Shown here: positions 3,502-37,381 of the stretch, piece after piece
Numbering within the stretch: the stretch's first letter is position 1
How the letters are laid out: the number at the start of each line of letters is the position of its first letter
Assembly: GCA_021785655.1 (NCBI GenBank)
Contig: JAJYET010000003.1
Span: forward strand, 34,937 to 98,936
Source: a bacterium
GTDB taxonomy: Bacteria; Chloroflexota; Dormibacteria; Aeolococcales; Bog-877
Direction of reading: 5' to 3'
DNA length: 64,000 nucleotides
The notes under the pieces: model-generated
What the model was told of the DNA's origin: nothing
The model's database searches: none
Seen by the model: only the letters and a program-made list of their open reading frames with translations
Translations under genes and position numbers: made by a program

Positions 3502-5141
3502 GACCCTCGCTCGAGCCGCAGCCAGTAGAAGCCATGGGGTCCGAGCGTCAGGGGGTAGGGCGCCTTGCCGACCTTGGGGAAGGGGACCCGGCCCACTAGC
3601 TCCACCGGGGAGCGGCCGGCGTACCCAGGCAGCGCGAGGCCCGCGGGCTGGGCGAAGCGGGAGAGGTTGTTCACGCACAGCACCTCCTCATCAGCAGAGG
3701 ATCGCACGAAGGCGAAAACCGAGGGGTTGTTGACTTCCACGACCCTGAAGTCCCCGCGTCCGAAGACCGGGTGGGCCTGGCGTACTCGCACGAACCTCCG
3801 CACCCACTGTAACAGCGAGCTCTCACTGCGCTGCTGCTGTTCCACATTGCACGCCTGATAGCCGTACACCGGGTCCATTAGCGGGGGCAGGTACAGCTGG
3901 GCGAAGTCGGCCCGGGAAAAGCCACCGCAGCGGTCGGCGTTCCACTGCATCGGGGTGCGAACCCCGTCCCGGTCCCGCACGTAGACGTTGTCGCCCATTC
4001 CGATCTCATCCCCGTAATAGAGGATCGGGGTCCCGGGCAGGGAGAGGAGCAGGGCAATGAAGAGCTCCATCTGGCGACGGCCGTTGCCGAGGAGCGGAGC
4101 CAGGCGCCGACGGATGCCCAGGTTGAGCTTCATCCGGGGGTCGGCGGCGAATTCGGAGTACATGTAATCGCGCTCGGTGTCGGTCACCATCTCCAGGGTC
4201 AGCTCGTCGTGATTGCGCAGGAACAGGCCCCACTGGCAGCCTTCGGGAATCGGGGGCGTGTCAGCCAGGATCTCGGTGATCGGGTAGCGCTGCTCCTGGC
4301 GAAGGGCCATGAACATCCTCGGCATGAGGGGGAAGTGGAAGCACATCTGGCATTCGTCCCCGTCGCCGAAGTAGGCGCGGACGTCCCGAGGCCACTGGTT
4401 GGCCTCCGCCAGGAGCACCCGGTCGGGGAACTCCGCCTCCACGACCGCCCGGACCCGCCTCAGGTAGGCGTGGGTCTCCGGCAGGTTCTCGCAGTTGGTG
4501 TCCTCGCGCTCGAAGAGGTATGGGACCGCGTCCAGCCGCAGCCCGTCCAACCCCATCCCCAGCCAAAAGCGGATGACATCCAGCATGGCGTCCTGGACCT
4601 CGGGGTTGTCGTAGTTGAGGTCGGGCTGGTGGCGGAAGAAGCGGTGCCAGTAGTAGGCGCCGGCCATCTCGTCCCAGGTCCAGTTGGAGGTCTCGGTGTC
4701 CACGAAGATGACCCGGGCCTGGCGGTAGCGGGAGTTGGTATCGCTGAAGACGTACCAATCACGCTTCGGCGAGGTCGGGCCGCTCCGCGCCTCCTGGAAC
4801 CATGGATGCAGGTCCGAGGTGTGGTTCATCACCAGATCCGAGATGACTCGGATTCCCCTCGCATGGGCTGCCTCGATCAGCTCCCGGAAGTCGTCAACGG
4901 TGCCGTAGTCGGGGTGGATGGCGTAGAAGTCGGAGATGTCGTAGCCACCGTCCCGGAGGGGAGAGGCGTAGACCGGGAGCAGCCAGATGCAGTCCACACC
5001 CAGCCAGCTGAGGTAGTCGAGCTTGGAGGTGAGGCCGGGCAGGTCCCCGATGCCATCGGCGTTGCTGTCGTAGAAGCCGCGCACCAGCACCTCGTACATC
5101 ACCGCGTCCTGGTACCAGCGGGACGGCTCACGTGCGCTCAC
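3498..5141 (-). CDS. treS: Trehalose synthase / maltose alpha-D-glucosyltransferase TreS
   Basis: [29 protein letters not shown]...[16 protein letters not shown] is the TreS GH13 signature. The start was moved to GTG at 5141 (GTGA overlap with the glgE stop). The 88 upstream codons in the ORF track overlap glgE and are Arg/Pro/Gly-rich. Confidence 0.85.
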
Positions 5142-32728: not shown

Positions 32729-32805
32729 CGGGGAGTGGCGCAGATGGTTAGCGCACCAGTCTGGGGGACTGGGGGTCGCAGGTTCGAGTCCTGTCTCCCC
32801 GACCA
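32729..32805 (+). tRNA. tRNA-Pro (anticodon GGG)
   Basis: Hand-folded cloverleaf with acceptor CGGGGAG/CTCCCCG, D-arm GCGC-AGATGGTTA-GCGC, anticodon stem CCAGT/ACTGG with loop CUGGGGG (GGG at 34-36, G37), T-arm GCAGG-TTCGAGT-CCTGT, discriminator A and an encoded CCA. Confidence 0.85.
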
Positions 32806-33127
32806 CTCCCAAGACCCCCCTCTTCGGGCGGGGCCTGACTAGCTCGACAGCGCCACAGGTGAGGCCCGAACGAGGTCAAATCCGCCGAGGCCGCGTGACC
32901 ACAGGGCGAACTGGATGGCGTCCCTACTTCCGAACGGCTCGGCGCTGACACCCCGGGCACCTCGCTGGTGGTTTTCGGCACATCCCCGTCCGTCTGGTGA
33001 CCGCGGAGCCAGCCGCGAAGAGGCGAAGGCGACGTCCGACCGCAAGCTTTCTCGTCCCCCTTGCCGCGTGCCATGATTTCTTCGACGCCGGCGGCGTGGT
33101 TCGCACCGTTGAGACGGTCCACAACAA

Positions 33128-34084
33128 TTGAGGTCCCCACCCATGACAACGGATAGCGCGTCCGGCCACTCCGCGCCCTTCTTCGGTTCTCAGCGCGACT
33201 TCTGGTGGAACGAGGACTTCGTCGGATTGGTCGTTGAGCGCCTGGGCCTTACCGGCACGCGATCAGTTCTGGACGTGGGCTGCGGGTTGGGCCACTGGTC
33301 TCGGGTGCTCTCCCGGGTGCTCCCCGCGGTTTCGGAGATCACGGGCATCGACCCAGAAGGAGCATGGGTCAGGCAGGCGCGCCTGGTTGATGCGGACCGT
33401 GGGCGGCCAATACAGGCTTCCGTGGACCGGGGATGGGGGGAGCGGCTTCCCTACCCCGACGCGCGCTTCGACCTCGTCACCTGCCAGACCGTCCTGATCC
33501 ATGTGGCGGACGTACCGACGGTACTGCGCGAGATGTGCCGGGTTGTTCAGCCCGGTGGAACGGTGCTCGTGGCCGAGCCTAACAACTTGGCCGGCCAGCT
33601 CGTTCGCTCGAGCGTCTCGGCCCAGAACGACCCGGAGGCACTCGCCTCCTCGATCCACTTCTACGCCACGTGTGAAGCCGGAAAGATCAAGGTTGGAGAA
33701 GGAAACACCTCCGTCGGAGATCTCCTGCCTGGCTATTTCGCCGAGGCGGGGCTCGATCTCGTGGGGTGCTACCTCTCGGACAAGTCGTCGCCGCTGTGGC
33801 CGCCGTACTCCTCTCCTGAGCAGGCCGCTTTGGTACGGGCGATCGAAGCTGCAGCCGAAGACGAGCGATGTCCGTGGAACAGGGACGAGGCTCGCCGATA
33901 CTTTCTCGCTGGTGGCGGCAGTGAGGCTGCGTTTGCGGAAGCCTGGTCGACGAGGGTCCGGGCGGTTCAGGCGGACTTAGCCGCGGTTCAGAGCGGATCG
34001 TTCTGGTCGGGTGGCGGGCAACTGATGTACCTCGTCGGGGGCCAGAAGCGCCCGACGGTAAAGCAGCCGACTACCGAGAGTTGA
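33128..34084 (+). CDS. Class I SAM-dependent methyltransferase
   Basis: VLDVGCGLGHWSRVL (motif I, GxGxG), DLVTCQTVLIHVAD, VVQPGGTVLVAEPN. The start could be ATG 33143 (MTTDSASG). Confidence 0.7.
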   Translation: MRSPPMTTDSASGHSAPFFGSQRDFWWNEDFVGLVVERLGLTGTRSVLDVGCGLGHWSRVLSRVLPAVSEITGIDPEGAWVRQARLVDADRGRPIQASVDRGWGERLPYPDARFDLVTCQTVLIHVADVPTVLREMCRVVQPGGTVLVAEPNNLAGQLVRSSVSAQNDPEALASSIHFYATCEAGKIKVGEGNTSVGDLLPGYFAEAGLDLVGCYLSDKSSPLWPPYSSPEQAALVRAIEAAAEDERCPWNRDEARRYFLAGGGSEAAFAEAWSTRVRAVQADLAAVQSGSFWSGGGQLMYLVGGQKRPTVKQPTTES

Positions 34085-34489
34085 GGGGAGTCCCGAAGAA
34101 AGCTCTACATCCCCGCGCCGCCCATCTGAGCTCTTCGTCCACCTTGGCCAGGCATTCCTGCTCCTGCAGCTCCCGCGGCTTGAAGCCCCCAGCGGGTACC
34201 GAGGGACCCAGGTTCCGCTGCCTCTCCACGTCCCCTGGCCCGGGACCGACGGCCTTCAAGGAGCCCGCTGCCTGCACCCTCTTGAGCCAGCATGCCCATG
34301 AGAGGGCTTCCTCGCAGGGCGTTGACGCCGCAGTGAAGTCGCCGGGCACCATACCCGTCAGCAGACCGCAGGCCGCCAGGCTGAGGCCCCGCCATTGACC
34401 ACGATACTTCGGTTATTGGACCGGCGGGATGCATTCGAGGAGGTTGCCTGCGGGCGTGGTCCACCCGCAGGGGGTAGGAGGGCTGTGGG

Positions 34490-34873
34490 TTGCCAAGGTA
34501 TCTGATCTCCTTCAACGCCCGGGCGATGGACCACATCCCCGAGGAGGACATGCCTTCTGTGGCAGCGGCGGCACACGCCGTAATCCAGGAGGCGCTGAGC
34601 GCGGGCGTCTACATCTTCAGCGGAGGGCTCGAGAACCAGAGAGCGAGCATCGTGGGCTCTGACGGGATGGTGACCGAGGGGCCGCACCCGGAGGCCATCG
34701 GCGGAGCGGCGATCGTCGACGTTTCCGCACACGATGAAGCGCTCGAGTGGGCCGGGAAGATCGCGGTCGCCTGTCGCTGCCCGCAGGAAGTCAGGGCGTT
34801 TGCGCAAGACCCCGAGCTCGCCCAGATGCTCCGCCAAGTTGAAACCCCAAGGCGACCTCCCGGCGACGTTTGA
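34490..34873 (+). CDS. YciI-like (DGPF/YCII-related) small protein
   Basis: MPRYLISFNARAMDHIPEEDMPSVAAAAHAVIQEALSAGVYIFSGGLE... is 127 aa. The TTG start is preceded by AGGAGG at -7. Confidence 0.6.
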   Translation: MPRYLISFNARAMDHIPEEDMPSVAAAAHAVIQEALSAGVYIFSGGLENQRASIVGSDGMVTEGPHPEAIGGAAIVDVSAHDEALEWAGKIAVACRCPQEVRAFAQDPELAQMLRQVETPRRPPGDV

Positions 34874-35647
34874 TCCCTTGTGACCTGCCACTCTCTCCCA
34901 GGCTGGCCCCACCTGGATCACCTCGAGGCGACGCCCAGGGTCAGCGGGGCCACCAGCGCGATCAAGTCGGCGACCCACCCACCACGAAGTGAGGCCGAAC
35001 CCGGGCGCCGCGATTGGTGCGGTGCTGCGGGGGCCCGCCACCGATTCCGGCCAGCAGGGATTCGCGGTGACGGCCCCAACTATAGCCCCCATGTGGCTCC
35101 CCGCCAGACGACGACACTCTGACTCCGCTGGGGCTGCGGCGCACCGGATCCTTCAAGTCCGGTTCTCGGCCCCGACAGCACGACAGCCCCGCCAGCTTGA
35201 GCGCGACCCCGGCTCCGGTTCCTCCGGCTGCCGAGGAGCCGCGCCCGGTACGCGCCACCTGGCGGGCAGTGCCACTGCATCTCAGTGCCCCGAGCTGCTC
35301 CCGGATTGGTGTCTACTCGCCCCGTCGCCCAGGCAGGACCGGCGCCCCACCGTCCAGACCGGGCCGTCCGCACTTTCACCCTGGCCAACTGGACCGGGTG
35401 GGTCCCGCTCCGTGTTGCCGGGCTCGGCGTCGGCCATGGGTTGCGCCGACTCCCTGTTCCAGCTACACTCGCGGCCACAACCAAGGGCGAGCCTACAGGT
35501 CGGGTGCGGACGGCGCCACTCTGGGGAGAGGCAAGGTCACGCGGAATCAGTGAGCCATCGGATCCACCAATCAGCCGGCCGCCCCCTGCTGGTGCAGGCG
35601 TCGGGGACGGAGCCGGTGCCATCAGTGTGTTCGTGGAGGGAAACACC

Positions 35648-37381
35648 ATGCACCTGTTAGATCGTCGAATGCGAATTCTGACCCGGCTGGGGGCCATTCT
35701 CGGAGCTGTGGCAGTGGTTTCCGCGGCCCAGTTGAGCGCAGGACCAGCTGTCGCTGCCGGGGGCGGATGGGTTAAGGCGCCCGCACAGGGTGAGCTGGAC
35801 TGCAACGGGTACAGCACGGTGCAGAAGTCGATCAAAGTCACGCTCCCCTGCACCGATCCTCACGGAGCCAACGGGTCACGCTTCTTCGACAACGGCTACT
35901 ACGTGGGCCACGACGAGCCCAACCTCCGGTTCGTGTCCAACGCCCCCGGATCCGGAGACAACGTCACCTGGACCCAGACGCTGCCCGTGGACCCGACATC
36001 CACCCCAACCGTCAGCACGCCGGGCAGCGACGTGACCCACTTCTTTGAGCTCTCCGTGGCGCCCTGGTTCTCCATGGCCATCTGCGACCCCAACTCCTAC
36101 CCGCAGACGCCGTGCACGCCCATGAGCAACTCCAATGCCCCCTCTGGCACCTACCCAGGAGGCGGAAGCGCGTTCATGGAGCTGCAGTTCTACCCGCCCG
36201 GGTTTGCCCCCTTCGTGAACAGCATCAGCTGCAACATCCCAGGCAGCACCACCCCGCTCACCGACGGGAACGGGGGATGGTGCGCGGCGCTCACCATCGA
36301 CAGTCTGGAGTGCACCAACCAGTTCAATTACTGCAACCCCGCGTGCACCGAGCCGGTCAACTTCGCCTTCATCCAGAAGAACGGCGTGCCCACCGGCCCC
36401 CCCAGCCCCCAGAGCGCCAACCTCTTGACCTTCACCCCTAACTCCCAAACCCTGTTCTTCTCTCCCGGGGATACGATCACGACCCAAATCTTCGACAACC
36501 CAAGACTGAAGGCGCTCGAGGCCATAGTCACGGACGACACGACGCACCAGAGCGGGTACATGGTGGCGGACGCCGGCAACGGCTTCCAGAACACCAACTA
36601 CCAGACCTGCGCCGGCACGCCGTTCAACTTCCAGCCCGAGTACAACTCCGCGGCCGCACCCAACTTCGTGCCGTGGGCGGCCTTGACGACCGACATCAGC
36701 ACCACCTTCGAGATCGGCCACTTCACTCCCTGCACCTCGCTGAGCAACCCTGTACGCGGGACGAGCGGGTACAACGTATGCAATGGTGCCTACGAGTCCG
36801 CCACCACACGGGACGGAGCCGTGGCACCGGCAACCCACACGCCGATCGAGGCATCGAAGGGAGATGGGCCCTGCTTCCCTGCGGGCGACACGCACGGCCT
36901 CGGGGGATCGGGAGGCGAGACGACGGCCCCCAACCTGGTGACCGGCTGCGACAACTTCAACAACGGAGGCGACCTGGACTACGATGGCACACCCTACTGG
37001 CCGGACTGGCCCACCGGGACCAGCCCCACCAGCTTCCCCTCCACCATGGTGATCCAGCCTCCTGGTTTCGGGAAGAGGTCGCAGGGGTACAGCCAGGTCG
37101 AGTTCGAGACTGACAACCCAGCCTCAGACTTCCTCTGCAACGTCAGCACCGGGCTGGGCTGCAGCGTCCCACCCCCCGGCCCGGGGAAGTTCTACCCGTA
37201 CTGGAGCCAGGTCTCGGGCGGCGGCTCAGCCTGCGTCTGGGAGTTCGGCAACATCGGAGGGACTGACTTCGGAGGAGCCGCGCAGTATGGCTCGGCCGGC
37301 GCCTCCGGCAACGGTTACAACGGCACCGACGGCAGCTCGCTGATGCCCCTCACCTCTGGGGGGTGCGTGGCCAGCTCCTGA
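35648..37381 (+). CDS. Secreted cysteine-rich hypothetical protein (577 aa) with signal peptide, possibly Tat-type
   Basis: ATG at 35648 is preceded by GGAGGG. MHLLDRRMRILTRLGAILGAVAVVSAAQLSAGPAVAA is the signal peptide. The mature part is N/G/T/S/P/F/Y-rich with about 30 Cys and very few Lys/Arg/Glu. I recognised no domain. The ORF-track start at 35285 is an upstream extension. Confidence 0.6.
   Translation: MHLLDRRMRILTRLGAILGAVAVVSAAQLSAGPAVAAGGGWVKAPAQGELDCNGYSTVQKSIKVTLPCTDPHGANGSRFFDNGYYVGHDEPNLRFVSNAPGSGDNVTWTQTLPVDPTSTPTVSTPGSDVTHFFELSVAPWFSMAICDPNSYPQTPCTPMSNSNAPSGTYPGGGSAFMELQFYPPGFAPFVNSISCNIPGSTTPLTDGNGGWCAALTIDSLECTNQFNYCNPACTEPVNFAFIQKNGVPTGPPSPQSANLLTFTPNSQTLFFSPGDTITTQIFDNPRLKALEAIVTDDTTHQSGYMVADAGNGFQNTNYQTCAGTPFNFQPEYNSAAAPNFVPWAALTTDISTTFEIGHFTPCTSLSNPVRGTSGYNVCNGAYESATTRDGAVAPATHTPIEASKGDGPCFPAGDTHGLGGSGGETTAPNLVTGCDNFNNGGDLDYDGTPYWPDWPTGTSPTSFPSTMVIQPPGFGKRSQGYSQVEFETDNPASDFLCNVSTGLGCSVPPPGPGKFYPYWSQVSGGGSACVWEFGNIGGTDFGGAAQYGSAGASGNGYNGTDGSSLMPLTSGGCVASS

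Follow-up and report, generated by a model that had tools for sequence, protein, structure and literature searches.

What occupies the long interval ahead of a gene for a secreted, cysteine-rich protein in a Dormibacteria genome, and does it conceal a regulatory RNA? The interval spans positions 34874-35647 of a 64,000-nucleotide (nt) stretch of contig JAJYET010000003.1, hereafter the window, whose coordinates are used below. The window is rich in guanine and cytosine (GC, ~68%), and its best annotated protein matches were to metagenome-assembled genomes (MAGs) of Candidatus Dormibacteria. A preliminary description of this DNA had treated the interval as a single 770-nt non-coding leader and had proposed that it held a riboswitch or a small RNA (sRNA) gene.

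Our comparisons with related genomes point to a different answer. The gap is probably a composite of two parts, a spacer (34874-35440) and a conserved module of predicted promoter and leader (35441-35647). We regard the feature as an ordinary promoter with a long 5' untranslated region (UTR) and one mildly interesting, conserved motif that resembles a Shine-Dalgarno (SD) sequence.

Results

A non-coding gap with two unequal halves

The bounds of the gap proved exact. The upstream open reading frame (ORF), which resembles the YCII family, stops at 34873, and the ATG of the secreted-protein gene is at 35648, leaving 774 bases between them. An independent gene caller likewise predicted nothing in these 775 nt, the largest gap in a 21.7-kb stretch of the contig. 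As had been described, both flanking genes carry strong SD sequences: GGTAGGAGGG, 7 nt ahead of the TTG start at 34490, for the YCII-like ORF, and GGAGGG for the secreted-protein gene.

GC content by codon phase differed by no more than 0.15 over 34860-35640, versus 0.3-0.5 in the flanking genes. The gap aligned end to end with that of the closest relative, locus L008 (JAKATL010000042.1, ~89% protein identity), with indels of 2, 4, 2, 1, 16, 6 and 1 nt that break reading frames. Mismatches to L008 were spread evenly over the three phases (p = 0.4-0.86, at scales of 60-250 nt), and no 90-nt sub-window of the gap had a period-3 substitution pattern in this comparison. In the secreted-protein gene, mismatches to L008 fell by phase as 15:10:62 (p = 5e-13), and codon-position identities of the YCII-like ORF to L008 were 0.87/0.88/0.69. 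A six-frame translation of 34874-35470 had no match at E<=0.01 among 5.8 billion proteins. The gap is non-coding, and on this point the preliminary description stands.

A protein-coding gene or small ORF hidden in the gap is thus extremely improbable. Long open frames do occur, of 223 amino acids (aa) on the plus strand and 257 aa on the minus strand, together with a 121-codon in-frame extension of the main gene; but long open frames are expected at ~70% GC, and these had no Pfam match and were not kept in L008, where the indels disrupt them. The related idea of a leader peptide is taken up below with the leader itself.

Conservation within the gap was divided sharply. Identity to L008 over 34874-35420 was 0.62, versus 0.63-0.76 at third codon positions in three flanking genes, whereas identity over 35421-35647 was 0.77 with a single gap column. 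BLAST comparisons of upstream regions showed that L008 shares the entire gap and L011 shares it only from 35422. Loci L002-L004 share the proximal leader only; BLAST aligned its last ~76 nt, and the promoter block aligned in MAFFT. In L002-L006 unrelated genes lie upstream, at the position of the distal spacer. By comparison, the proximal ~205 nt were conserved in all 13 Dormibacteria orthologs. We therefore rejected a leader of 770 nt, because the distal ~570 nt are lineage-specific and appear to evolve at a roughly neutral rate. What survives of that proposal is an apparently unusual leader length conserved across the clade, now put at ~172 nt. The features of the region are collected in Table 1.

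Table 1. Positions of features in and around the gap (window coordinates).
Feature	Position	Strand	Remarks
tRNA-Pro(GGG)	32729-32805		Left edge of variable interval 32729-35440
YCII-like ORF, 127 aa	34490..34873	+	Upstream flank; weak Pfam YCII match (E=0.0086); coding pattern of GC at third codon positions
Distal spacer, ~570 nt	34874..35440	.	Non-coding, lineage-specific, apparently unconstrained; homologous only in L008
Predicted -35, TTGCGC	35441..35446	+	Conserved motif, 13/13 orthologs
Predicted -10, TACACT (TAGACT or TAGAAT in relatives)	35464..35469	+	Conserved motif, 13/13 orthologs
Predicted 5' UTR, ~172 nt	35476..35647	+	Start inferred ~7 nt past the -10
SD-like purine motif GGGGAGAGG (GGAGG or GGAGGUG in relatives)	35523..35531	+	No start codon at usable spacing
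Local imperfect hairpin (CGG..C.CCCC...GGGG..G...CCG)	35576..35615	+	Weakly supported
True SD, GGAGGG	35635..35640	+	7 nt before ATG 35648
Secreted Cys-rich protein gene, 577 aa	35648..37381	+	ATG 35648; ConA-like jelly-roll core

A predicted promoter conserved among orthologs

We aligned 265 nt upstream of 10 orthologs and added three sequences later, for a set of 13 Dormibacteria orthologs or paralogs (called orthologs here for brevity). The clearest conserved block was CTTGCG(C/A)-N17-(GC)TA(C/G)ACT. The motif TTGNNN-N17-TAnAnT occurred exactly once per 330-nt upstream region in all 13, the spacer was always 17 nt, and the end of the -10 hexamer lay 129-199 nt before the start codon. The window's own version, TTGCGC-N17-TACACT, was the sole match to this motif on both strands of the 64 kb, for which shuffles gave 0.5. 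When 77 loci of the protein family were compared, the strict motif was confined to the Dormibacteria orthologs and one other locus; it was absent upstream of homologs of ~50% identity, with one exception. An nhmmer search with the promoter-plus-leader alignment returned only the training orthologs and L169.

Comparative sequence thus identifies 35441-35469 as a predicted sigma-70-type promoter. Because the motif is conserved across the 13 orthologs, we place the probable transcription start site (TSS) near 35476, which would give the secreted-protein gene a 5' UTR of ~172 nt. The predicted promoter stands ~180 nt upstream of the start codon and not within 50 nt of it. The arrangement is that of a sigma-70/sigma-A promoter with a long 5' UTR: TTGnnn, a 17-nt spacer and TAnAnT are fixed in 13 of 13 sequences, and a leader and a canonical SD follow. 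It differs in that only 7 of the 12 hexamer positions in the window agree with the E. coli consensus, and in that promoter use and TSS are predicted. To our knowledge, there are essentially no experimental promoter data for Dormibacterota.

Two further observations concern this motif. Its uniqueness in 64 kb may mean that near-consensus promoters are rare in the genome, or that most promoters differ from it. Separately, L027, from a MAG labelled as a proteobacterium, has TTGGCA-N17-TATACT ~285 nt upstream of the GELDCNG anchor. It is the sole distant family member with the strict motif at a distance like that in Dormibacteria, and this could be coincidence or a shared long-leader architecture.

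No riboswitch signal in the leader

Rfam was scanned at gathering score over the window, 12 ortholog loci and 19 loci of distant homologs, and at E<=10 over 34000-35800. At gathering score these scans gave only transfer RNAs (tRNAs) and ribonuclease P (RNase P) RNA and no riboswitch, and the 12 ortholog and 19 distant-homolog loci taken by themselves also gave only tRNAs and RNase P RNA. At E<=10 the region 34000-35800 gave a truncated L31-leader stem and three chance matches, with nothing below E=0.1 and no cyclic-dinucleotide family among them. The families that the preliminary description had singled out were absent: ydaO/kimA, the cyclic di-AMP riboswitch (RF00379), had no match in the window, in 34000-35800 at E<=10 or in the 12 ortholog loci, and GEMM-I (RF01051), c-di-GMP-II (RF01786) and msiK had none in the window, in 34000-35800 at E<=10, in the 12 ortholog loci or in the 19 distant loci.

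Folding gave a similar result. The leader folded no better than its dinucleotide shuffles (minimum free energy z=+1.27; z=-0.30 for the whole gap), and leader z-scores over the 13 orthologs ran from -2.5 to +1.5, centred near 0. The RNAalifold consensus was -5.9 kcal/mol for 8 sequences, and with all 13 it contained 0 pairs. Leaders that belong to proteins 65-89% identical could barely be aligned (52% column identity); riboswitch aptamers do not diverge that strongly between such orthologs.

The sequence motifs on which the riboswitch proposal was built are real, and all of them fall inside the leader: GGGGAGAGGCAAGG at 35523-35536, ACGCGGAATCAG at 35539-35550, ACCAATCAGCCGGCC at 35567-35581 and CGGGGACGGAGCCGG at 35602-35616. 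Most are not conserved, and the AAUCAG repeat is lost even in L008. The resemblance to cyclic-dinucleotide riboswitches lies in the length of the leader, its position upstream of a secreted-protein gene, the high-GC soil bacterium and the G-rich, GGGGA-type motifs, and such riboswitches do occur upstream of secreted cell-wall enzymes in Actinobacteria. It goes no further, since the window's leader has no covariance-model match at E<=10 and no conserved structure. By all these comparisons, no described class of riboswitch accounts for the leader, nor does it look like a strongly structured RNA.

An alternative is that the leader is a riboswitch or structured cis-regulatory RNA that is new and specific to Dormibacteria. 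It might, for example, be a switch that sequesters the SD, with the upstream GGAGG motif and the true SD competing for a CCUCC-like anti-SD element. We judge this improbable. Leader length and the GGAGG motif are indeed conserved, L002, L003, L005, L013 and L169 have a CCUCC-like element between the two GGAGG sites, L013 and L169 can form alternative GGAGGCG/CGCCUCC pairings, and the local hairpin contains one compensatory pair. However, the CCUCC element is absent from most orthologs, the window has no anti-SD-like element of any kind, and in most cases the predicted SD is not consistently sequestered; nor do the missing Rfam match, the lack of a consensus structure, the z-scores centred on 0 and the poor alignability of the leaders fit an aptamer. 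The SD/anti-SD switch was accordingly rejected as a general mechanism, its CCUCC-like partner being found in a minority of the 13 leaders.

A conserved SD-like motif in mid-leader

All 13 leaders contain the SD-like motif at +47..+57 from the predicted TSS. In 12 of them its distance ahead of the start codon is 106-143 nt, and in the shorter leader of L170 it is 68-82 nt. Judged by its predicted duplex with the anti-SD, it was the strongest site in 8 of the 13 leaders, and in most of the other five it came within ~1.4 kcal/mol of the best site; in 12 of 13 leaders the true SD was no stronger than this motif. Duplex energies, calculated for a canonical 16S tail, ranged from -10.5 to -17.2 kcal/mol (-10.9 in the window).

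In some orthologs a GTG follows the motif. That GTG is only 2 nt away, and the peptides it would start differ in both length and sequence; in the window, L008 and L011 no start codon stands 5-9 nt from the motif. No conserved upstream ORF (uORF) followed the motif among the 13 leaders. We rejected the leader-peptide idea, since the candidates are unlike each other and none exists in the window, L008 or L011.

The distal spacer

In the 34874-35440 segment the searches returned little. It had no Rfam match below E=0.1, and a generic promoter and terminator scan of 34000-36000 called no terminator-like or consensus promoter sites. The gap showed no similarity to phage or plasmid DNA. Searches for repeats, miniature inverted-repeat transposable elements and tandem repeats found nothing beyond chance, with no internal repeats in the spacer. 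Comparison by blastn and tblastx with 80 loci that carry YCII homologs gave compositional noise only, and tblastn of the relatives' upstream genes against the spacer detected no similarity. GC content is ~0.70-0.72, like that of coding DNA. Apparently, the distal ~570 nt are lineage-specific DNA that drifts at a roughly neutral, or synonymous, rate.

Could the spacer be a decayed gene or the end of a mobile element, that is, a pseudogene or island terminus? Its coding-like GC and neutral evolution are what a dead gene would be expected to show, and it belongs to an interval next to tRNA-Pro with different cargo in each relative, in which L002, L003 and L004 have att-like repeats of the tRNA 3' end. 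Yet six-frame translation revealed no protein similarity, the long ORFs have no Pfam match, nothing similar lies beside the 80 YCII homologs or among the neighbours' upstream genes, and the window has no phage or plasmid match, no second tRNA-derived repeat and no internal repeats. We consider such an origin unlikely.

An independent sRNA gene on either strand, the other proposal of the preliminary description, is very improbable. The gap is long and non-coding, and a GC-rich hairpin at 35209-35232 gave a sub-threshold match to the L31-Actinobacteria family (23.6 bits versus a gathering score of 35, E=0.11). But the match covers the stem only and skips 26 of 48 model positions, and the hairpin falls at the 16-nt deletion in L008, in sequence of ~0.54 identity. 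We rejected the match as a GC stem below gathering score that is deleted or diverged in L008. Furthermore, the distal part has no promoter-like or terminator-like sites of its own, it is kept only in L008 and there at about the neutral rate, and folding energy was no better than that of shuffles.

A variable interval beside tRNA-Pro

The spacer forms the right end of an interval that begins at tRNA-Pro(GGG). Downstream of the secreted-protein gene, all relatives share the syntenic order der-gpmI-tpiA-pgk-gap. Between the tRNA and the secreted-protein gene, gene content differed in every genome compared: L002 has a phage terminase and a lipoprotein, L003 and L004 have MazE, L006 has a TetR regulator, L011 has a 546-aa secreted ORF to which no family was assigned, and L005 and L010 have almost nothing. 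In the window the cargo is a methyltransferase and the YCII-like gene, with a GC content of 0.64-0.68 versus 0.70-0.74 in the flanks; the YCII-like ORF is at this locus common only to the window and L008.

Copies of the 3' end of tRNA-Pro, 46-51 nt long, were found in L002 (2979-3024), L003 (3030-3080) and L004 (1451-1501). Copies of a tRNA 3' end are the usual scar of site-specific integration, and those in the three relatives mark integration events at this site. The interval from tRNA-Pro to the secreted-protein gene is a hypervariable integration hotspot. Like a tRNA-linked genomic island, the window's interval adjoins a tRNA gene, varies in content and carries cargo of lower GC, and three relatives have the tRNA repeats. 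Unlike an intact island, the window contains the tRNA-Pro 3' end only once, and no integrase was found among the ORFs of 32806-35647 that were scanned against Pfam. What the window contains is a remnant, degraded or fixed, and not a mobile island that is still intact.

Two other stretches of this interval deserve mention. A second gap, 34085-34489 (405 nt), separates the methyltransferase from the YCII-like gene; codon-phase GC hints at a 93-aa ORF on its minus strand (34071-34352) with no family match, and at ~50% identity to L008 it is the least conserved stretch of the island. In L005, the seemingly empty interval at ~4290-4700 (minus strand) appears to hold an uncalled ORF, an impression gained from reading the sequence only.

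The secreted-protein gene

The protein has an N-terminus like that of a signal peptide and contains 18 Cys. Around its true SD, GGGAGGGA is nearly invariant in the orthologs. A 31-nt repeat had suggested a paralog, and none was found in the window. In several actinomycete genomes the homolog of this gene is followed, after ~110-580 nt, by an RNase P RNA gene (L017 4704-5092, L018 4775-5160, L020 5174-5561, L021 4758-5143, L030 4764-5161), a neighbourhood that the window does not have.

Discussion

The comparisons above favour a gap made of two pieces with separate histories. The distal piece would be a non-functional or weakly functional spacer at the right end of a variable cargo segment, the methyltransferase and YCII-like gene, placed between tRNA-Pro(GGG) and the secreted-protein gene. 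The proximal piece would be the secreted-protein gene's own expression module, consisting of a housekeeping sigma-70-type promoter, a leader of ~172 nt and the SD GGAGGG.

Within that module the GGAGG motif in mid-leader may bind the 30S anti-SD without a start codon following. A 30S subunit held there could stabilise the 5' end of the mRNA by blocking a 5'-3' exonuclease, or the motif could serve it as a ribosome standby site. Either role, combined with the near-consensus promoter, would favour high expression of the secreted protein. The stabilising role has a precedent in the STAB-SD of Bacillus thuringiensis cry3A. That SD-like sequence, ~129 nt ahead of the start codon, binds 30S without initiating translation and shields the mRNA from RNase J1 (reviewed in PMC4113751; primary work by Agaisse & Lereclus 1996 and Mathy et al. 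2007). The window's motif resembles it in lying in a 5' UTR more than 100 nt upstream of the start (-125..-117, versus near -129 in cry3A) and in its complementarity to the 16S 3' end if a canonical tail is assumed; its lack of a nearby start codon would fit a motif that does not direct translation. Each precedes the gene of a secreted or exported protein described as highly expressed, although high expression is only surmised here. The two differ in that the window's motif is ~50 nt from the predicted 5' end, whereas in cry3A, where the transcript is processed, it is at the extreme 5' end; moreover, the window's copy is degenerate, so that the resemblance is one of architecture only. By this analogy, an mRNA stabiliser of the STAB-SD type or a ribosome standby site is the most likely role of the motif, and we offer it as a tentative assignment. 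Rather doubtful is the broader proposal that the leader and its fixed GGAGG constitute a new post-transcriptional element specific to Dormibacterota, whether a STAB-SD-like stabiliser, a standby site or a fast-evolving translational switch.

Several of our own results weigh against this account of the gap. The hexamers match the E. coli consensus at just over half of their positions. Since the -35 agrees with it at only 3 of 6, the conserved promoter was overlooked by the generic promoter scan. Both the TSS and the use of the promoter are predictions. The hairpin at 35576-35615 has 90% of cells paired in 6 close sequences and includes one compensatory change from a C-G to a G-C pair, although it is broken in L005, L010 and L006. 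Our 13 orthologs represent only ~6-7 independent lineages, which gives low power to detect covariation, and a small or fast-evolving structure could be missed. The SD-like motif is degenerate in the window itself (GGGGAGAGG), and the canonical 16S anti-SD tail assumed for the duplex energies may not be the organism's own. Lastly, the neutral divergence of the distal spacer rests on one pairwise comparison, that of the window with L008.

The main use of this result is to remove a false lead. Long gaps free of ORFs are easily mistaken for riboswitches in very GC-rich genomes, and most of the gap described here is drifting spacer in a recombination-prone interval next to a tRNA gene. The analysis also yields a well-supported promoter prediction for Dormibacterota, TTGnnn-N17-TAnAnT, and a long, conserved leader, with an SD-like motif inside it, ahead of a gene whose family, secreted jelly-roll proteins, is very widespread and uncharacterised. 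If the motif is a 30S-binding stabiliser, control of the STAB-SD type would extend far beyond Firmicutes. If the leader is a new regulatory element, Dormibacterota, an uncultured phylum, would gain its first described cis-regulatory RNA element.
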